A DNA stretch of 64,000 nt, from assembly GCA_035559535.1 (NCBI GenBank), contig DATMBG010000015.1, forward strand, positions 23,677 through 87,676. The letters run 5' to 3'. Below the pieces are notes generated by a model. It was not told the origin of the DNA, searched no databases, and saw nothing but the letters and a program-made list of their open reading frames with translations. Position numbers and translations under genes: made by a program. Of the stretch, positions 3,458 to 61,670 are shown piece by piece; the first letter of the stretch is position 1, and each line of letters opens with the position of its first letter. This stretch comes from Candidatus Limnocylindrales bacterium. GTDB taxonomy: Bacteria > Moduliflexota > Moduliflexia > Moduliflexales > JAUQPW01.

Positions 3458-5041
3458 TTATCTGGAGGGTCGCTCGACCCCAGGTCTCGGCATATAATTC
3501 TCCTCTTCCAGAACCTCCAATAACTTAAAATAATCCCTTCGTCGTACAACCAGATAGGTAGGGGATATCTCATCTACAATAAACTTATGGATCCGCTTCG
3601 ACTCTTTAAGCTCTTTAGCAAGGGCTTCATTATCACATCTCAGCAAAAAAGCATCGACAAAACCGATCCGTCCATAGGCACTTGTCCAATCCAAGACGGT
3701 TTGATGAACTTTTTCAGGTAACGGTTTTTCCGAGCATTTCCAGAGAAATTCAAGGATTTTATCTGGAGTTTCCCCTTCTTGTAAAGCTTTATAGATGGCA
3801 TGTCGGGACAATTTATAGGTTAAAGTATCGGCAACCTTAAGTAATTCGGTGATTCTGGTTAAGTACCAACGAATAGAGAGGTCCAGATTTCTGGGAATGA
3901 TAATTTCAAAATTAGGTTGAACGGAGAAGGTTTTCTCGCTGTGGTAGGGGAATAAACTTTCATCGTTCATGAGAACAGCATACCCCAAGGGGCTCAATTT
4001 AATTCCTACAAGGTTCTCACCGCCAGATTTTTGAATTATACCTTGTTCAATACAGCCTATGTAGAGCAAGAGGGAGAGAAAATGATCACTCCGATCTTCG
4101 GCAGGGGATCGGGACGAAAAATTTTTGGGTATAATGAGATCGAGGACCTTTTTCAAGGAAGCTTGTGAAATCCATGTATTGGAAGGAGCCAGCTGAAGAA
4201 GCTTTAAAATAAGGTGAGCTTCGGAAGAAGAAGATAGGTAGGCTTGCTGCCAGAATTTAAAAATTTCCTTGACCTTTTCAAAATCTGACTTTGCCAACCA
4301 GTTTGTAACTTTGCCTGTAAGGGTCAGGTGATTCCCGGTTATTTGAATAAATTGCTTCTCAGTACAAAATTTATAAATAAAATCGAATCGCTCCGGATAA
4401 CCACCCTTCGTTGATTTTTCATCGTCATCTAGAGGTTGCTCCGGGAGTTCAAAGGTATCGAAAATTCGGAGCTGGGTCCTCTTAAAGATCAGATTTTCCT
4501 GGGTAAGTTTAACCTGATCCTTTTTTAAAAAGGCAAGGAAAGTGAAAATATCTCGAACCAGGGCCAGGTGATCTGAACGGATTATGTGAGGCTCTCCAGG
4601 CCATACCTCCAATTCTTTAACCATTTTCTGGGCGATAATTTCGATCAATGAATCCCTCAGATCCATGGAAACGGAATAAGCTTTACGTTTACTCGGTAAG
4701 ACTAAAACAAGTCCATACTCCACCAGAGAGTTCATGAGTTCTTCGGCCCTATCCCCTGGAAATAGTTCTGTCAACAACGTATGACATTCCGGTATGGGAA
4801 TACCGTCCTCATCTTTATAAAAAAGGACCAGCCTAAGCCCGGTACCTTGTGCCTCAGTGAGTTTATTGAATAAGTCAGCAAGAAACTTTTTATCTCTAAA
4901 CTTAACGCTTAATAACTCAATGAGTCGGGCTTTAGAGTAAAGGTTACAGGCCAGGTTATTCTTTAAGGTAATGGTCTGAGCAAGCTCTATAGGGATCTGA
5001 GATAAATATTCCTGAAATCGTACCTTACTCTCTAAACTCAA
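3458..5041 (-). CDS. helicase-associated domain protein (XPB N-terminal / DRD-like, Helicase_C_3-type C-terminus); no helicase domain
   Basis: 527-aa ORF with a TTG start behind GGGAGGG. The C-terminal ~150 aa (FSVQPNFEIIIPRN...TYKLSRHAIYKALQEGETPDKILEFLWKCSEKPLP...RIGFVDAFLLRCDNEALAKEL...YLVVRRRDYFKLLEVLEEENYMP) parallel the damage-recognition N-terminus of bacterial XPB and its partner proteins, from memory. It lies 26 nt downstream of the mltD-like gene. Confidence 0.5.
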   Translation of the reverse strand: MSLESKVRFQEYLSQIPIELAQTITLKNNLACNLYSKARLIELLSVKFRDKKFLADLFNKLTEAQGTGLRLVLFYKDEDGIPIPECHTLLTELFPGDRAEELMNSLVEYGLVLVLPSKRKAYSVSMDLRDSLIEIIAQKMVKELEVWPGEPHIIRSDHLALVRDIFTFLAFLKKDQVKLTQENLIFKRTQLRIFDTFELPEQPLDDDEKSTKGGYPERFDFIYKFCTEKQFIQITGNHLTLTGKVTNWLAKSDFEKVKEIFKFWQQAYLSSSSEAHLILKLLQLAPSNTWISQASLKKVLDLIIPKNFSSRSPAEDRSDHFLSLLLYIGCIEQGIIQKSGGENLVGIKLSPLGYAVLMNDESLFPYHSEKTFSVQPNFEIIIPRNLDLSIRWYLTRITELLKVADTLTYKLSRHAIYKALQEGETPDKILEFLWKCSEKPLPEKVHQTVLDWTSAYGRIGFVDAFLLRCDNEALAKELKESKRIHKFIVDEISPTYLVVRRRDYFKLLEVLEEENYMPRPGVERPSR

Positions 5042-5066: not shown

Positions 5067-6842
5067 TTAGTTGATTGGTTGGTTACGATGAATGATCAAT
5101 TTATCTCCGGGCATTAACTGTTCTCCGGGACCCAATTTGTTCCACTTTCTAAGAAGATTTAGATCGACATTAAAGTTTTGGGAAACTTCCCAGAGGTTAT
5201 CTCCTTTTTTAACGGAATAAATAATTTTCGCTTTCTTAGGAGGTTGAGATCGAGTAGAGACGGTCTTTTTAGCTGGATAATAAGGAGATTTATAAAGTTT
5301 ACGCGTCCCTTTAATCCAGGTTCTTTTGGAGCCGGAAGACGCTCGTCCTTCAGAGGGTTTACTTAATTTATCATACCATATCTTCAATTCCTCATTGGGA
5401 GTTAAATTAGCCGTATTCAGTTTATTCCATACGATAAGCTGCGTCATAGTGACTTTAAACTTGGCTGCAACTTTACGTAAATCATCTCCCTTTTGGATCT
5501 GGTAAGTTACAAACTCCCGTTTTCTACCGGAGGGTCGGATGGGTTTTTCGTAACCGAATTCATCTGTTCCTGGCTGAGAGATAGTGGTAAGGGTTTGAGC
5601 CGACCCAGACTTAGAGGTAGCAGTTAATTCGTTTTCATCTGAGAAATGAATGGTAGCCAGAAGTTCCTTATCTGATGAGGATTTTAACCTGGAGGTTGCA
5701 GCGGTAAGGGTCCTTACAGGGGGATTTTTTTCCGGTAAGGAGGGTTCATTATACACCAGGGGAGATTCATAAACGGGATTAAGTCCGTACTTACCTGGAT
5801 CACTGGCGATGATGATGGCAGCCTTCAGCATAGGAACATAATTTTGAGTTTCTGCTCCCAAATAGCCTGTACTGGAGAGTTCTTCAAAATCACGGGTTCG
5901 ATATCGACCGATTGCGTTATGGATTTTATATTCTCCACTATTGTAGGCGGCAATAACCAAATCCCAGGAGCCCAACATCCGATAGAGGTCTTTCAGATAC
6001 CTGGCTGCGGCATGGGTAGATTTTACCGGATCTTTCCGTTCATCAACCCTTTTATCAACCCGCAATCCATAGTTCCTGGCAGTCGAACGCACAAACTGCC
6101 ACATACCCACGGCCCCACTGGGGGATACAGCTTCTGTTGAGAAACTGCTCTCTATCAAGGGAATATAGGCCAAATCTGCCGGAAGACCATAGGAACTAAA
6201 AATTTTTCTAATCATGGGTAAATATCTTGTAGATCGCTCGAGGCCTCTCAAAAAATTGGAATCCTCCTTTTTACGGGAATAAATATTAATCCACTCTTGA
6301 ATCTTTTCATCTATTTCTATGGGAGTATTAAAAATCAAAGGAGGATTCTGATTGACCGTAGAAGGAGAGGAATTAGAACTTAAGGAAGCAGAGCTTTGGG
6401 TATTCGGCTTTGAATTATTATTTTCCAATCCATTGGGGGTAGGTGTCTGGGCGGATTTAGAATTATTTGCCTGGTCCTGAATGAGGTGAATTTTCAGTGA
6501 AAGCTCTTCATAGGTATCTTCAAGTTTCTTGTGGGATTCTGGATTGTTGTCTGCATCCAAAAGAGCTTTCAAAGAAAGTTCAAACTCCTTAGAGGCTAAA
6601 TCCCAACGCTGATTACGATAATGTTCAAGACCGGCCTGATAGTGGCTCTGAGCTTGTTGGATGGCTTCCTCTACTTTGGATAGAGGAGGAGTTTCCGGAA
6701 GGGGTTGAGACTTAGGGGTTTCTGCTGTCTTCTCAGGAAGGGTACTCTTTTTTTGATGAGATCCACAGCCATAAAGAAGGAAAATAGAAATTAAAAAAAT
6801 CCATAGATATGAACCGTTTAATCTAACATTTATCCTAAACAT
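5067..6842 (-). CDS. membrane-bound lytic murein transglycosylase D-like lipoprotein (SLT domain plus 2 LysM)
   Basis: SLT catalytic region (IPLIESSFSTEAVSPSGAVGMWQF...AAYNSG). Two C-terminal LysM repeats (YQIQKGDDLRKVAAKF..., YSVKKGDNLWEVSQNF...). Start moved to ATG 6842 (MFRINVRLNGSYLWIFLISIFLLYGC, lipobox) behind AGGAGA. Confidence 0.85.
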   Translation of the reverse strand: MFRINVRLNGSYLWIFLISIFLLYGCGSHQKKSTLPEKTAETPKSQPLPETPPLSKVEEAIQQAQSHYQAGLEHYRNQRWDLASKEFELSLKALLDADNNPESHKKLEDTYEELSLKIHLIQDQANNSKSAQTPTPNGLENNNSKPNTQSSASLSSNSSPSTVNQNPPLIFNTPIEIDEKIQEWINIYSRKKEDSNFLRGLERSTRYLPMIRKIFSSYGLPADLAYIPLIESSFSTEAVSPSGAVGMWQFVRSTARNYGLRVDKRVDERKDPVKSTHAAARYLKDLYRMLGSWDLVIAAYNSGEYKIHNAIGRYRTRDFEELSSTGYLGAETQNYVPMLKAAIIIASDPGKYGLNPVYESPLVYNEPSLPEKNPPVRTLTAATSRLKSSSDKELLATIHFSDENELTATSKSGSAQTLTTISQPGTDEFGYEKPIRPSGRKREFVTYQIQKGDDLRKVAAKFKVTMTQLIVWNKLNTANLTPNEELKIWYDKLSKPSEGRASSGSKRTWIKGTRKLYKSPYYPAKKTVSTRSQPPKKAKIIYSVKKGDNLWEVSQNFNVDLNLLRKWNKLGPGEQLMPGDKLIIHRNQPIN

Positions 6843-15904: not shown

Positions 15905-17059
15905 TCAGGTTACCACAAGCCAATATGTCTTTACTTCTTTCGCTCCAAGTTGCCTTTTAAATCTATCCAGATCTTCGACCTCAGACCCACCCAAATCAAC
16001 GTATCTTATACCGTTTTTACGCAAAAGATCGAAAATTCTTAAATAAGAATATTGTGAAATAGCAGTAAAGCCGGTAGGATCATATTTGTGGGAAATAATC
16101 TGATCATCTCTAAGGGCAAACGTGGCATATAAAGCAACCGTGTCTGAATTAACCCTCTCCCCGATAAACAGCATGATGGGAATACGGTCGTTTTCATTTC
16201 TAAGATGTCCCATGTAGGCAAAAAAATCCCTATTTCCTTGATCAAAGCTAGGTAAGTGGTAGATCAAATTAAAATAATCCTCAGGAGAAGACCCCACTGC
16301 GTTTTTTAATGTTTTAAAATGCCTTATGATCAGGTCTTTGGCCTCCTGTTTTTGCTTATCAGGATGGTAGGGTTCTATACAAAACTCCACGTGATTACGA
16401 TGGAGAAAATTTTTAAATCGGTTATAGGCCAGTTTTGCCTTTCTTCTAAAATCCCGACTCTCTTTGCCTTCTAACATTTTGATCACTAAGCTACCCGTAT
16501 TATCATACGTAATAACCTCATCTAAAAGGATGAGACGATGATGGTAGGTTTCGTCTTCACTGTGGGCAAAGGGATGCCATGGGTCGTCTTTTATTTCCGA
16601 GAAACCACTCCTGATGTCCATCAGTTGCCTGTATTTTGTTTCTGAGAGGTGACGGATATAGATAGATGTTTTAGGGATCTCAGGGATTTGACGTACCTGT
16701 TTGATAAAATTATTCACAACTGTAATCCAGGTTTTTCCCCGTGGAGCGATAATGTGAAGATGACCCTTTTCTTCCTCAAAGGTTTTTTTGAAGAAACCGA
16801 GTCCAAAAATATTTTCACCGTCATAGTAGAGCAGGCCCTGAGGGTATCTACTGCTTTCACCTCTTAAATTATAGCCATTGGCATACAGCATTAATCCTAA
16901 AAAGCTGAACCCAAAGGATCCATCTTTAAATTGGTTGATAATTTCCATATCCCGAAAGGTTAAGGGCCTTACAATATCCGGAAAATGATCCATCAAGGCT
17001 TTTTCAACTAGATCTCTCTGTTTTTTTCCTTCAATCAGGTGATTCGTCGATATTTTCAT
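15905..17059 (-). CDS. DUF2156-like protein (homolog of the MprF/LysX C-terminal aminoacyl-PG synthase domain, GNAT-like fold)
   Basis: 384 aa. The C-terminal ...RYVDLGGSEVEDLDRFKRQLGAKEVKTYWLVV resembles the conserved NLGG...L..FK..F tail of this family. Assignment is from memory. Confidence 0.45.
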   Translation of the reverse strand: MKISTNHLIEGKKQRDLVEKALMDHFPDIVRPLTFRDMEIINQFKDGSFGFSFLGLMLYANGYNLRGESSRYPQGLLYYDGENIFGLGFFKKTFEEEKGHLHIIAPRGKTWITVVNNFIKQVRQIPEIPKTSIYIRHLSETKYRQLMDIRSGFSEIKDDPWHPFAHSEDETYHHRLILLDEVITYDNTGSLVIKMLEGKESRDFRRKAKLAYNRFKNFLHRNHVEFCIEPYHPDKQKQEAKDLIIRHFKTLKNAVGSSPEDYFNLIYHLPSFDQGNRDFFAYMGHLRNENDRIPIMLFIGERVNSDTVALYATFALRDDQIISHKYDPTGFTAISQYSYLRIFDLLRKNGIRYVDLGGSEVEDLDRFKRQLGAKEVKTYWLVVT

Positions 17060-17591
17060 AAACGAGAACCTCTTCTCTTTTCACTTAGAAACCGTCTCAA
17101 AATTCAAAAAACAGGGTAGAGAAGCTTCGAGGAAATCCCTTTTGAACTACTTTTGTCCTTGGAAATTCGATTTTTGAGATAATTTCCTAATCTGCAAGTT
17201 TAGCTATGAGGGATCCTGATAGGCTATTAAATCGATTATTCTAAGGAAATATCTGGTTTGTAGGCTGGCTCCCGAGAAAATTAGAAAGCTCGTGGGAAGA
17301 GTAAGAAGAAGGAACAAAGAGAAGAGAAATGGGAGGAATCCCTTGATTATTTCCTTCGGCAACCCTTCTACCATGGTGCAGTGAGCACGTTAGGTACTGG
17401 CTTTCCGTTTCACCCTTTCGAGTGATTTGGCTTTATCGGGAAATAAGCTCTACAAAATAAAATCTCAGCTGTTATTTACAGCAATTCTTTTGCCAAAGCC
17501 TTTTTCTCACCTTGAGGAGAGTTTTTAAGAAGACCTCTGGTCTTACCTGCCCTATTCAGAGACTTAAAGGGAGTGATAATATTTTAATTAT

Positions 17592-27778: not shown

Positions 27779-28049
27779 TGGACCTAATCCCTCCGAACTT
27801 CCCTGGGAGGGAAGAAAGGAATCGGGCACAGGCGCCAGGTTAAGGCGCCTCCACCCGGTCCCCTCCCCCGTTTCATAGGGGAAGAAAGTTCGTTTCAAAG
27901 TTCCTTCCCCTGCAAAGCGAGGGAAGGTTAGCAGGGTAAACGTCTCGTTTGACATTAAGGAGACCCTCCTCAGATATCTTACGCTTATTCTAGCGCCTAT
28001 GCTCCCGCCTCCCCCCAATATCTTTCTAAGAATAGAGCCATAACTCCAA

Positions 28050-28210
28050 GTAACTGTAACCATTTAGTAGGGGCCACTTTTTTCTGTCTGAACACCTCCT
28101 GGCCCCCCCTCCAGGGGGGACTTCAGCAGTGGTCACCCCACGTCAATCCCCCCTGGAGGGGGAGGGCCAGGAGGTGTTTCTTTTTCCACCTACTAAATTG
28201 ATACGGATAC
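28050..28210. repeat. ~160-bp long-hairpin (MITE/REP-like) element, copy A
   Basis: GTAACTGTAACCATTTAGTAGG...GAACACCTCCTGGCCCCCCCTCCAGGGGG [29-nt loop 28119-28147] CCCCCCTGGAGGGGGAGGGCCAGGAGGTGTTTC...CCACCTACTAAATTGATACGGATAC. A second copy is at 61466-61624. No coding capacity. Confidence 0.85.
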
Positions 28211-28228
28211 TAACTCCGACAATTTCCC

Positions 28229-28257
28229 TTGACATAACCTAGTTTACCTATTAGAAT
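28229..28257 (+). promoter_or_regulatory. putative sigma70-type promoter of the 28363-32089(+) gene string
   Basis: TTGACA (28229-28234), 17 nt, TAGAAT (28252-28257). Confidence 0.5.
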
Positions 28258-28362
28258 CCACAGGGTAGACAGGCCCGATTGTCCTGGCTTTTTCTTTATT
28301 TATTTTTTTATTATAAAAAATTCTAAAACAACCTCCCGGCTTCATAAAGCGGTACTCTGAAT

Positions 28363-38765: not shown

Positions 38766-38874
38766 TGGGAGTGTGGGGGTATGGGAGTGTGGGAGTGTCG
38801 AGGTGTGGAAGTATGGGGGTGGGGAAGAATATACTTCCATCCCCCCATACCCCCACACTCCCATACCCCCATAC
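38766..38874. repeat. G-rich/C-rich imperfect palindrome (GTATGGGAG / CTCCCATAC family), probable aceA terminator
   Basis: The left arm is built from GTGTGGG/GTATGGG units (…GGAAGTATGGGGGTGGGGAAG), the loop is aatata, and the right arm is CTTCCATCCCCCCATACCCCCACACTCCCATACCCCCATAC. It sits between the aceA stop and the rarA start. Confidence 0.75.
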
Positions 38875-38895
38875 TTTAGGATTAAATACAGAAAA

Positions 38896-55814: not shown

Positions 55815-56356
55815 AGTTTACCTCCTATCTCATTTTGATTTAATTTTCCGGTTTATTACTCAAAATTCTTATCCCTTAAAGCTTAATTTTTCTCCTCTTC
55901 TTTATCACTTAAAGCAGGTTATCAAACTCAGGATTGCACACACAGTATAATTGACTTTTATCCATTCTGTCAAGAAGTAAATTATACCTGTTGACATATC
56001 CTGGTTAAAAAAAATACTTGAAAACTTTTTGAAATTGTGTTCTATAAAACTCTATAAGCACGTTGATACTACTTCATTAACATACAGTTATGCTTTTGAA
56101 AGGGTTTTAATATTTTACCCGATTTAATGTATGTTAACTTATTATATAGTTTACACTTATTAAGTTATCCACAAATGTGGATAAACCTGTGTGTAACTTT
56201 TTTCTCTTTTTTAGAGAGCAATCTGTGGAGAGTTTTGTCAAGATTCCTATCAAATTTTTCTCGGTGGCAGGAGTAACCAGAAAAGATTCCCCGGTCTGTT
56301 CAAAATTTAGTTCCTATTAGAAGAAGGAAAAGGATTTCAAGAACCGCATAAGAGCC
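55815..56356. other. probable oriC / dnaA control region
   Basis: 542-bp AT-rich rpmH-dnaA spacer with two perfect DnaA boxes, several 2-mismatch boxes (TTATCCATT near 55956, TCTCCACAG complement near 56222) and an A/T tract (GGTTAAAAAAAATACTTGAAAACTTTTTGAAATT). Gene orientation switches here. Confidence 0.7.
56165..56184. promoter_or_regulatory. two perfect head-to-head DnaA boxes
   Basis: TTATCCACA (56165-56173) aa TGTGGATAA (56176-56184), which together form a 20-bp perfect palindrome. Confidence 0.85.
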
Positions 56357-57754
56357 ATGGATATATGGGAAAAGGTTCTTAGAGAGCTACAAAATCAGAT
56401 CAACCCATCCAGCTTTGAGATGTGGTTTAAGCCTACCCGACTGAGGTCTTTTAACAACCAGGAACTCCAGGTGGTTGTACCCGATGAACACTTTGTAAGC
56501 TGGCTTAGGGAGCACTACCTGGAGTCTATAACCAGAGTATTAAGAACCTTTGTGGATAAGATGCCTGAAATCCATTTCGTGGTAGATGATACCTTTAAAG
56601 CAAAAGTAGAAGAAAAGCCGACTCAATTGGAATTACCTATTCAACGGGTTTACTATCCAAGACAACGTCCTCGTAAGATGACCCCGGTTCGAAATCCGTG
56701 GAAAAAGCCCTCTCCATTTCTTCTGGACACTGAAGAACCTAACTTGAATCCTCGATATACCTTTGAAACTTATGTAGTAGGCACGAGTAACCAGTTTGCC
56801 CATGCAGCATCCAGAGCCGTTGCTGAACAGTTATCCACAGCCTATAATCCACTTTTTATCTATGGGGGGGTAGGACTCGGTAAAACTCACCTTATGCATG
56901 CGATCGGACATGCCGTCAGAAAAACGCTGCGCTCGATTAGACTCTTCTATGCATCCTCCGAACGCTTCATGAATGAGTTGATCCATGCCATTCGATATGA
57001 TGCCATGCCTGAATTCCGAAGGAAATATCGTAACATTGATTTACTTCTCATCGATGATATTCAATTTATTGCAGGTAAAGAACGGACCCAGGAGGAATTT
57101 TTCCATACTTTTAATGCCTTATATGATGCTCGAAAACAGATCGTTATTTCCAGTGATTGTCCCCCGAAACAAATACCAACCCTTGAAGAACGGTTAAGAT
57201 CTCGATTTGAGTGGGGTCTCATTGCAGATATACAACCTCCAGATCTGGAAACAAAAATAGCTATTCTCAAAAAGAAAGCCGAGTTGGAAAAGGTGGGATT
57301 ACCCGATGACGTAGCCCTATTTATCGCCAGCAAAATAAAATCAAATATTCGGGAGTTAGAAGGCTCTCTAATCAAAGTTGCCGCTTATTCTTCTTTGACT
57401 GGACAAGAAATTACCCTGGAGCTTGCTCAACAGGTCTTGAAGGATCTTCTAAGTCCCAAGGAAAAAAATATAAACATTGACTTAATTCAAAAAGTAGTAT
57501 CCGATTATTATAATGTAAGCTCTCAAGAGATGAAATCCCAGTCAAGGGCCAGAGCTATTGCCTTTCCTCGGCAGGTAGCCATGTATCTCTCTAAAGAGTT
57601 GACCAGGTCCTCATTGCCCGAGATAGGTAAAAATTTCGGAGGTAAAGATCACACAACTGTGATCCATGCCTGTCAAAAAATTAAAGAAAAAATAGCTAAG
57701 GATCCAAATTTTAAACAAGTTATAGAGAAATTAAAAGGGCTTGTAACCGCATGA
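56357..57754 (+). CDS. dnaA: chromosomal replication initiator protein DnaA
   Basis: 465 aa. Domain I start MDIWEKVLRELQ, AAA+ GGVGLGKTHLMHAIG, Walker B LLLIDDIQF, and the domain IV DnaA signature (FGGKDHTTVIHACQKI). Confidence 0.97.
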   Translation: MDIWEKVLRELQNQINPSSFEMWFKPTRLRSFNNQELQVVVPDEHFVSWLREHYLESITRVLRTFVDKMPEIHFVVDDTFKAKVEEKPTQLELPIQRVYYPRQRPRKMTPVRNPWKKPSPFLLDTEEPNLNPRYTFETYVVGTSNQFAHAASRAVAEQLSTAYNPLFIYGGVGLGKTHLMHAIGHAVRKTLRSIRLFYASSERFMNELIHAIRYDAMPEFRRKYRNIDLLLIDDIQFIAGKERTQEEFFHTFNALYDARKQIVISSDCPPKQIPTLEERLRSRFEWGLIADIQPPDLETKIAILKKKAELEKVGLPDDVALFIASKIKSNIRELEGSLIKVAAYSSLTGQEITLELAQQVLKDLLSPKEKNINIDLIQKVVSDYYNVSSQEMKSQSRARAIAFPRQVAMYLSKELTRSSLPEIGKNFGGKDHTTVIHACQKIKEKIAKDPNFKQVIEKLKGLVTA

Positions 57755-60310: not shown

Positions 60311-60595
60311 ATGTACCTGCATATCGGGATGAATATCTACATCTGGACCCACCGGATTGTTGGAATCTTTAACTCAGAGCTTTATAAAAAGAGCCCGGCA
60401 TTTCGAACCTTTTTGGAAGAAGCCAAAGTGGTCGATAACGGATTAACCCTCGATCAGGTTAAGTCATTTATATTAACGGATTCCAATGTTGTTTACTGGT
60501 CTAATGTTCATAGCCGAACCCTTCGACAGCGCTGTAGAAGAGGATTAATAGATAACCTTGGCTTACAAGAACCCCCAGCGCTTCCCTCACACTAA
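60311..60595 (+). CDS. DUF370 (RemB/YaaB-like) protein
   Basis: 94 aa. MYLHIGMNIYIWTHRIVGIFN...KSFILTDSNVVYWSNVHSRTLRQR parallels B. subtilis YaaB/RemB (MYIHLG...IVGIFD...SP.SS.TLKKR, from memory). It holds the same recF-gyrB position as in Firmicutes. Confidence 0.7.
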   Translation: MYLHIGMNIYIWTHRIVGIFNSELYKKSPAFRTFLEEAKVVDNGLTLDQVKSFILTDSNVVYWSNVHSRTLRQRCRRGLIDNLGLQEPPALPSH

Positions 60596-61336
60596 CTTCC
60601 CGTATGAAAAAACCAGCCGAATACCGGCATTTCGTATAGCTTGCTGTACTTCAGGTCGGGCCCGGTAGCAAAAGCATACAGGGAATATCTCGCCTACCAG
60701 ATGATTTCGTGCACGTCTTACCTGTTCAATGAACCTTTCTACCTCCCTTAAAGTCAGGTTATGTTTTGCCTCTCCAACTATCCAGATCTTCCTGTCTGGT
60801 CTTACCGGGTCGGTAGCGGTTCCAAATATATTTACCTCCTCTGGCTCGCCATTCCATGTTTGCCAGGATCGCTCCAGCACATTTACTTGCCAGCCAAATT
60901 CACGTTTCAACACCTCGTGTAGGACAATATAGGCTATATCCTCGATATCTCCACCCACCGTTTCACTCAATCCACCAACCTGTTTATGGAGGGCATCAAC
61001 AGCAATAACCAGCCGTTCTACAGCCAACTCCAGTCTTTCCACGGCCGACTCCAATCTGCTGACCCGTTCCTCAACCCCACTGAGTCTTTCTTCACTGCGA
61101 CGTTGGGCTTCGGCCAGTTCTGAGATCTGTTCTTCGACTCTATGTTGGGCTTCTGCCAACTCCGTTACAATCTGCTTCAGTTCTCGAAAATCCTCTCGTG
61201 TTACCCCGGCCTGATATATCTGTAGGGCTACCTTGTCTAGTACACTCAGGAGAACATTTGCAGTCCGTTCATCAAAGGTTTGACGTAACTCGGTTAGCAA
61301 AGCCTCTCGGTTGATGAGTATGAGTGTATCACTCAC
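60587..61336 (-). CDS. coiled-coil protein with C-terminal PD-(D/E)XK-like nuclease fold
   Basis: 249 aa. Central repeats ELAEAQHRVEEQISELAEAQRRSEERLSGVEERVSRLESAVERLELAVERL. The C-terminal EVNIFGTATD...KIWIVGEAKHNL gives a D...ExK pattern. It resembles the multi-copy cyanobacterial/Chloroflexi family often mis-annotated as a chordopoxvirus fusion protein (from memory). Confidence 0.6.
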   Translation of the reverse strand: MSDTLILINREALLTELRQTFDERTANVLLSVLDKVALQIYQAGVTREDFRELKQIVTELAEAQHRVEEQISELAEAQRRSEERLSGVEERVSRLESAVERLELAVERLVIAVDALHKQVGGLSETVGGDIEDIAYIVLHEVLKREFGWQVNVLERSWQTWNGEPEEVNIFGTATDPVRPDRKIWIVGEAKHNLTLREVERFIEQVRRARNHLVGEIFPVCFCYRARPEVQQAIRNAGIRLVFSYGKLV

Positions 61337-61465: not shown

Positions 61466-61624
61466 GTAACTGTAACCATTTAGTAGGGGTCACCTTTTTC
61501 TGTCTGAACACCCCCCTGGCCCCCCTCCAGGGGGATTGACGTGGGGTGGCCGCTGCTGAAGTCTCCCCTGGAGGGGGGCCAGGGGGGTGTTTCTTTTTCC
61601 ACCTACTAAAATGGATACGGATAC
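61466..61624. repeat. ~160-bp long-hairpin (MITE/REP-like) element, copy B
   Basis: Same outer and inner arms as copy A in the same orientation. The 29-nt loop 61535-61563, ATTGACGTGGGGTGGCCGCTGCTGAAGTC, matches the reverse complement of the copy A loop at 27/29 positions. Confidence 0.85.
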
Positions 61625-61641
61625 AAAACTGCACTTAACGC

Positions 61642-61670
61642 TTGACAAGCCCAAATAAGTTTGTCATAAT
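61642..61670 (+). promoter_or_regulatory. putative sigma70-type promoter of gyrB
   Basis: TTGACA (61642-61647), 17 nt, CATAAT (61665-61670). This implies a ~170-nt leader. Confidence 0.5.

Follow-up and report, generated by a model that had tools for sequence, protein, structure and literature searches.

The 64-kb window analysed here (64,000 nucleotides of contig DATMBG010000015.1, from a Candidatus Limnocylindrales bacterium) is the part of a bacterial chromosome that surrounds the replication origin. The minus strand carries rnpA-yidC-jag-trmE-gidA and the plus strand dnaA-dnaN-recF-remA-like-gyrB. On the basis of this gene order and of the DnaA boxes, with a cluster of perfect ones at 56165-56839, oriC probably lies at ~55.9-57.9 kb. 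The origin was not resolved by GC skew. Two copies of a hairpin element of about 160 bp are found in the window. Copy A has as neighbours a cheA-like hybrid kinase gene and an operon of a 70-aa open reading frame (ORF) and a hydrolase, and copy B a DUF8196-like gene (minus strand) and gyrB, which starts at ~61840. Neither the repeat finder nor searches of the 64 kb uncovered a third copy. The asymmetric arms of the two copies run in the same direction, while the 29-nt loop that they enclose stands inverted in copy B.

The original prediction placed the copies at 28050-28210 and 61466-61624 and claimed that only the centre of the hairpin is inverted between them. Global alignment bears this out. 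The copies, which are ~90% identical overall, are collinear through the left arm (including the 16-nt bulge CACTTTTTTCTGTCTG), both inner stems, the T-run, and the right arm, with the centre left unaligned. If copy B is reverse-complemented, the centre aligns with that of copy A but the asymmetric outer parts no longer do. The case in which the arms are also reverse-complemented was examined, and the arms are collinear, not reversed. The two loops agree at 6 of 29 positions when compared directly and at 27 of 29 when one is reverse-complemented, as had been predicted; loop B is the exact reverse complement of loop A save for two transitions. The repeat finder independently arrived at the same division, with the direct families D7 and D10 representing the arms and the inverted pair I1 (28091-28162 with 61520-61591, 72 nt, 85%) representing the centre.

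The breakpoints of the inversion may fall at any point of the inner stems, because the stems are themselves palindromic. The minimum inverted tract is ~31 nt, comprising the 29-nt loop and the neighbouring stem position (GGGGAG/CTCCCC in copy B). The maximum is ~85 nt, limited by the asymmetry between GAACACC on the left and GAAACACC on the right (reverse complement), which is not swapped in copy B. In this flipped copy an inverted repeat of 27 nt, perfect throughout, encloses the inversion. Where the inner stems of A and B differ, the change on one arm has its mirror image on the other (T:A vs C:G, and one additional C:G pair).

Only three complete copies of the element were recovered. The third, found in a congeneric genome (locus L003), carries a diverged loop which nevertheless keeps the A-like order CTTCAGCAG...CCCC...TCA. 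Since the A-type loop is common to L003 and copy A, the flipped loop of copy B represents the derived state, and one inversion in the ancestry of B would be the simplest history. Three transitions and one C separate the centre of the reconstructed pre-flip B from that of A. Copies A and B are only ~90% identical and hence come from different source copies, so the flip may predate the insertion of B. The flip/flop system implied by the original prediction is not supported: with A-type loops in A and L003 and a flipped one in B, the three copies do not show two mirror-image classes. Copies A and B are found on opposite sides of the probable origin; relative to the replication fork their arms therefore point in opposite directions and their loops in the same direction (n = 2). 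This co-orientation of the loops with fork movement could be chance and is a lead only.

The terminal inverted repeats of the element are 22 nt long and imperfect: GTAACTGTAACCATTTAGTAGG and the reverse-complemented right end, GTATCCGTATCAATTTAGTAGG, agree at 18 of 22 positions, and the repeats are kept in A, B, and L003. The left 22-nt end is identical in these three copies and in two incomplete ones (L002 and L004), and this 22-mer occurs exactly twice in the window, with 0.00 occurrences expected from shuffles. Inside the ends and an asymmetric spacer lies the inner palindrome, with G/C-rich arms of 27-30 bp around the 29-nt loop. Its position and its GAACACC/GGTGTTTC junctions are identical in all three full copies. 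The differences between the left and right arms are kept in every copy examined, which makes the orientation of the arms unambiguous. The L003 copy has ~60 additional nt with two small hairpins (L003 5344-5403) between CCTACTAAA and TTGATACGGATAC in its right arm; either these were inserted or A and B belong to a subfamily that lost them.

Copy A folds into one long hairpin both as RNA (-94.8 kcal/mol, z = -8.35) and as DNA (-48.8 kcal/mol, z = -7.7), and the RNA fold of copy B is slightly more stable (-101.2 kcal/mol, z = -8.38). None of 200 shuffles was as stable as the RNA folds of A and B. On the plus strand only, TTTCTTTTT comes after the inner palindrome, and together these look like a one-directional intrinsic terminator. 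The element was expected to have no coding capacity, and six-frame translations of the copies indeed gave only short glycine- and proline-rich peptides, with no homologues among 5.8 billion proteins. Searches with the translated element for proteins predicted in other copies, which could have led to extra copies, found no such protein, either with a single frame or with a concatenated six-frame pseudo-protein (the latter was swamped by glycine- and proline-rich candidates). No Rfam family was detected at gathering thresholds. Permissive scans returned sub-threshold matches resembling microRNA precursors on both strands, and these are generic hairpin noise.

Table 1. Coordinates of the element, its parts, and the host features next to it. 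Positions refer to the window unless another locus is named.
Feature	Coordinates	Strand	Details
Copy A, A-type loop	28050-28210	+	161 bp; alignment, repeat finder, fold
Left terminal inverted repeat, copy A (GTAACTGTAACCATTTAGTAGG)	28050-28071	+	pairs with right end at 18/22
Asymmetric bulge (CCACTTTTTTCTGTCT)	28074-28089	+	left arm only, sets arm orientation; alignment and fold
Left G/C-rich inner stem, copy A	28090-28118	+	repeat finder, fold
29-nt loop, copy A (GACTTCAGCAGTGGTCACCCCACGTCAAT)	28119-28147	+	same orientation as L003 loop
Right G/C-rich inner stem, copy A	28148-28180	+	2-nt bulge relative to left stem; then TTTTT
Right terminal inverted repeat, copy A (CCTACTAAATTGATACGGATAC)	28189-28210	+	
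Left target duplication, copy A (TAACTCCAA)	28041-28049		8/9 match to 28211-28219
Right target duplication, copy A (TAACTCCGA)	28211-28219		host sequence according to orthologous loci
Host promoter, TTGACA-17-TAGAAT	28229-28257	+	sigma-70-type, 11/12; starts 18 nt past right end of A
Copy B, flipped loop	61466-61624	+	159 bp; alignment, repeat finder, fold
Left inner stem, copy B	61506-61534	+	61507-61533 perfectly complementary (27 nt) to 61565-61591 (I6)
29-nt loop, copy B (ATTGACGTGGGGTGGCCGCTGCTGAAGTC)	61535-61563	+	reverse complement of loop A at 27/29
Right inner stem, copy B	61564-61593	+	then TTTTT
Host gyrB promoter, TTGACA-17-CATAAT	61642-61670	+	11/12; starts 17 nt past right end of B
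Reversed remnant at the A site of relatives	L009 2582-2642; L026 ~3632-3652		L010 and L011 have the same sequence as L009
Hexamer TTGACA, copy A	28229-28234		right end, +18
Hexamer TTGACA, copy B	61642-61647		right end, +17
Hexamer TTGACA, L003 copy (inside DUF433 coding sequence)	L003 ~5436		right end, +18
Hexamer TTGACA, L002 copy	L002 ~530		left end, +16
Hexamer TTGACA, reversed remnant	L009 ~2659; L026 ~3669		left end, +16
Hexamer TTGACC (5/6), L004b copy	L004 ~2830	minus	left end, +16

Beyond the original prediction, the copies were found to behave like a MITE, short for miniature inverted-repeat transposable element, and, in the window, to lie 18 and 17 nt from a consensus sigma-70 promoter. 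In a scan with a 20-mer from the left end over one genome per species, the family appeared only in the metagenome-assembled genome GCA_030550175.1 (JAUQPW01), a congener with ~92% nucleotide identity. That genome contains the complete L003 copy, two copies cut by contig ends (L002 and L004), and a truncated one (L004b) which is oppositely oriented, has a variant terminal repeat, and ceases to match the family soon after the left inner stem begins. The possibility that L004b is the end of an autonomous insertion sequence (IS) was rejected, as no transposase ORF follows it. Across the two genomes there are at least six insertion sites. A metagenome scan with the same 20-mer matched three unrelated contigs by chance only, and neither viral contigs (pattern scan for paired hairpin arms) nor the PLSDB plasmids contained anything.

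Further copies in the same genome are nonetheless probable. Over two segments (17.5 kb in total) a Logan contig of run SRR7882662 shares 100% identity with the window, and this contig starts inside the right arm of copy A. This k=31 assembly, made independently from the same population, thus breaks at the element, which is why additional copies are expected.

Target duplications accompany two of the insertions. Copy A is flanked by a 9-bp one with a single mismatch, and the L003 copy by a perfect 8-bp one (TTATGATA/TTATGATA, 8/8). The L003 copy interrupts a DUF433 gene: after removal of the element, of one duplicate, and of a separate upstream 1-nt frameshift, the translation gives a full-length Pfam DUF433 match that spans the insertion point (profile 1-55 of 56, E = 1e-18). 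Copy B has no target duplication; at least 23 nt are missing at its left junction relative to the empty site, which would account for this.

The orthologous loci of relatives were reached through 90%-identity protein clusters. The B site is empty in L015-17 and L019 (lineages with ~95% and 86-89% nucleotide identity), where the right junction is exact, and the A site is empty in L012-14 (86% lineage). In L009-11 (95% lineage) and L026 (92%) the A site holds a decayed remnant of a left arm in the opposite orientation, of 63 nt and ~21 nt respectively, which ends 2 nt nearer the same promoter than copy A does. Two insertions apparently struck the A site, that of the window copy and an older, reversed one, or else it went through a more complex replacement. 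An in-situ flip of the whole element by recombination between its terminal repeats was rejected as the origin of the remnant, since in the terminal repeats the outermost positions that tell left from right are swapped too. Another ~44 kb of the syntenic contig of the 95% relative (L030, L033) contains no copy. Both window copies are lineage-specific insertions, and judging from these comparisons the element was active after the window lineage parted from the 95% relative.

A 12-mer, AAG[A/G]ATAGAGCC, is found exactly 10 nt left of the left end both in copy A (28027-28038) and in the L004 contig-end copy (5899-5910). Over ~100 nt the left flanks of these two copies show no significant similarity (local score 20, null mean 19.8) and only the 12-mer matches. 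It may belong to the target or to the end of a different repeat.

All insertions with a readable flank have an outward-facing TTGACA (once TTGACC) 16-18 nt past one of their ends (Table 1). The background frequency of TTGACA is 2.4e-4 per position per strand, which gives ~1.5e-3 per insertion (offsets 16-18, either side). The hexamer is host sequence, as it occurs in the DUF433 gene and also where a site is empty, and is therefore not carried by the element; the spacers between the element end and the hexamer are unrelated in sequence. Beside both window copies it forms the -35 box of a promoter that matches the consensus at 11 of 12 positions, and on both strands of the window there are only nine such sites. 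The promoter downstream of A is kept in relatives that lack the full element, and the gyrB promoter is unchanged at the empty sites of relatives. This pattern suggests that the element selects targets beside -35-like hexamers, in either orientation. A much broader claim would describe an as yet undescribed mobile family that homes 16-18 bp upstream of sigma-70 -35 hexamers, a safe-haven target recognised by a transposase, and whose loop is recurrently flipped by hairpin-templated strand switching, with an orientation that follows the direction of replication. This combination is improbable. Should the element truly home at one set distance from -35 hexamers, on their upstream side and in either orientation, its target specificity would be unusual among bacterial transposons, and strong hairpins with T-runs would be placed as insulators beside promoters, including the gyrB promoter near oriC.

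Several other features of the neighbourhood were recorded. Right after the -10 box downstream of copy A (28258-28300) there is a small conserved hairpin with a T-run (CAGGCCCGATTGTCCTGGCTTTTTC); L009 shares it, and L026 has it in a form with substitutions. It could be a leader or attenuator of the operon with the 70-aa ORF and the hydrolase. The DUF8196-like gene beside copy B (60587-61336, minus strand, 130 nt from the element) encodes a coiled-coil protein with a GEAK-containing C-terminal domain, and a 58%-identical paralogue is encoded at L003 5836-6753, 420 nt from the L003 copy. Three separate samples (L001, L020/L021, L023) have contigs ending inside the DUF8196-like gene, which may therefore be multi-copy. 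A separate long G-rich hairpin with ~45-nt arms of GGGAGTGT/GGGGTAT-like repeats is located at 38766-38875, between mgsA-like and isocitrate lyase genes. The 95% relative keeps it at the orthologous site, where its loop and the length of its arms differ. A c-di-GMP-I riboswitch (17355-17441, minus strand, 65.6 bits) is found upstream of a 384-aa ORF (15905-17059) without a Pfam match.

The observations are most probably explained by a non-autonomous MITE-like element whose loop was passively inverted a single time by template switching during replication; this reading is favoured, with moderate confidence. A transposase encoded elsewhere would move the ~160-bp unit and leave target duplications of 8-9 bp. 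Owing to its palindrome, either strand of the unit can fold into a single long hairpin. During replication the nascent strand would change template within one inner stem, copy the loop from the opposite strand, and return in the other stem. The centre would thereby be replaced by its own reverse complement, with the asymmetric arms unaffected. Such a flip would have occurred once, in the ancestry of B or of its source copy, and would now be fixed between paralogues that have diverged. It is best seen as something that the palindrome produced passively and not as the work of a dedicated switch. The mirrored stem differences and the perfect 27-nt repeat of copy B fit palindrome-templated copying. 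Template switching between the arms of inverted repeats, which homogenises them, is established in bacteria (PMC5941160), and for perfectly paired hairpins of bacterial rRNA and of a microRNA locus template switching has been documented to invert the loop (PMC8794818).

Some points weigh against this explanation. Documented template-switch loop inversions are mostly of 4-8 nt (PMC8794818), and here a 29-nt loop lies between ~28-bp arms. The distribution of loop orientations can be judged from the three complete copies only. Neither a cognate transposase nor an autonomous IS bearing these terminal repeats turned up in the window or at the fetched loci. The lack of a duplication at B needs the extra assumption of a deletion of at least 23 nt at the left junction, and the B sequence may be heterogeneous or assembled in the wrong orientation. 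Finally, the sequence would fit template switching, recombination between the arms, and conversion from an inverted copy alike. When these explanations are ranked, template switching comes first, followed by recombination between the arms and by conversion from an opposite copy, with an assembly artefact, a dedicated switch, and a nested insertion all minor.

The original prediction had offered three mechanisms, of which inverted-repeat recombination and strand switching remain viable and hairpin transfer of the parvovirus type is unsupported. Intramolecular recombination between the inner arms (RecA-dependent or not) would have flipped the loop and produced exactly the pattern seen here. Comparable recombination takes place between inverted repeats of plastid genomes and between the terminal repeats of insertion sequences, and the arms of 27-30 bp are nearly perfect. 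However, 27-bp arms are at the lower limit for RecA-type homology, and the duplex between them is only 29-31 bp, far under the persistence length of DNA, so that synapsis is sterically implausible unless a cruciform is extruded. Recombination between the arms is therefore unlikely.

Ectopic gene conversion is an alternative of similarly low probability. A family copy in the opposite orientation would have donated the centre, with the palindromic stems providing homology on both sides and the recipient keeping its own arms. The family does insert in both orientations, further genomic copies are probable, and loop B is two substitutions away from loop A, which means that A itself was not the donor. 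Against this, no donor was found, the flanking homology is only ~28 bp per side, and the arms show no mosaic tracts.

The remaining explanations are all very improbable. Loop B could have been threaded backwards in the assembly graph between the perfect 27-nt inverted repeats: the same-sample k=31 assembly breaks at the element, the source contig is identical to contigs assembled from the metagenomic run, and copy B is found in no independent contig. However, any k above ~28, or reads of at least 100 nt, would span arm, loop, and arm and so fix the orientation, related metagenome assemblies (e.g., the k141 contigs in ENA) use a far larger final k, and B has its own substitutions and indels throughout and is thus not a chimera of A. 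A programmed flip/flop, in which a dedicated invertase, HUH enzyme, or hairpin-resolving nuclease repeatedly inverts the loop and possibly regulates the adjacent promoter, has in its favour the strong promoters adjoining both copies and a loop sequence conserved between two genomes. At 29-31 bp the segment falls well short of known invertons, the element does not lie at the end of a DNA molecule, and the loop lies ~90 nt upstream of the -35 box without a promoter-like signal. The original prediction saw no recombinase gene in the window, and Pfam scans of the main ORFs (≥145 aa) and of two shorter ORFs adjoining the elements agree, with no transposase, invertase, or HUH gene; nor do ~150 kb of related loci contain an invertase or HUH-type gene. 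It is just as doubtful that the inner palindrome is a separate small mobile unit which entered the outer element in either orientation: the truncated L004b copy does lose its match to the family shortly after entering the left inner stem, but the palindrome occupies exactly the same position with the same junctions in all three full copies and no solitary one exists in the window or at any locus examined.

Copies A and B are a clean natural example of the inversion of a large (29-nt) loop inside a mobile hairpin, the inversion itself being a known type of mutation. Repeats whose centres differ by reverse complement between copies matter for annotation, alignment, and assembly. The main interest of the element lies in its apparent promoter-proximal homing and its unusually large inverted loop.

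Among known systems, invertons differ from the element: no invertase is encoded in the Pfam-scanned ORFs, the segment is only 29-31 bp long, and the loop segment contains no promoter-like hexamers in either orientation. The flip/flop of parvoviruses, including adeno-associated virus, also involves two states that differ in whether the unpaired hairpin tip is reverse-complemented. Those hairpins are the termini of linear single-stranded genomes and are regenerated in each round of replication by a Rep nickase. The present element is internal to a chromosome near oriC, flanked by chromosomal genes, and behaves like an insertion by transposition, with target duplications and empty sites in relatives, and no Rep/HUH gene was found in the Pfam-scanned ORFs of the window. 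The hairpin-transfer analogy of the original prediction is thus not supported.

The REP/REPIN-RAYT and IS200/IS605-derived elements are likewise dispersed, mobile, G/C-rich extragenic palindromes. They leave no target duplication, lack long terminal inverted repeats, and insert beside a fixed tetra- or pentanucleotide. An insertion of the IS200/IS605 or REP/RAYT type was rejected on the grounds that a target duplication is present, the flanks share no tetranucleotide, and there is no RAYT/TnpA gene in the window. In Wolbachia, IS elements reportedly undergo inversion through recombination between their own terminal inverted repeats, so that, as here, a mobile element's own inverted repeats cause its interior to be flipped with respect to the ends. 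The Wolbachia cases concern kilobase interiors and terminal repeats, whereas the present one concerns an internal 28-bp palindrome with a 29-nt spacer. Small hairpin-associated inversions also occur in plastid non-coding DNA.

The inverted loop itself resembles the template-switch loop inversions of rRNA genes (PMC8794818). In both a segment is replaced by its own reverse complement (27/29 vs 6/29 here) within perfectly pairing stems, the stems and flanks are unchanged, and differences are mirrored on both arms. The published rRNA loops are mostly of 4-8 nt and come from orthologues, whereas here a 29-nt loop differs between paralogous copies of a mobile element.

As a whole, the element shows every tested feature of the bacterial MITEs summarised by Delihas 2011 (PMC3184786), such as Correia/CREE of Neisseria, Chunjie of Geobacter, and ERIC/IRU of enterobacteria. 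MITEs are no longer than ~400 bp and have no transposase gene; like them, the element is short (<200 bp), lacks such a gene, and has terminal inverted repeats, target duplications (L003 and A), several mostly intergenic copies, mobility visible as presence and absence between relatives, and a long, very stable stem-loop. Its fold of -95 to -101 kcal/mol compares with ~-98 to -130 kcal/mol for Chunjie (PMC3184786), and its target duplication is 8-9 bp, in contrast to the TA of Correia elements. It differs from known MITEs in that nothing in Rfam or among the plasmids is related to its sequence and that its insertion seems tied to a TTGACA 16-18 nt away. It is placed as a new family within this well-known class.

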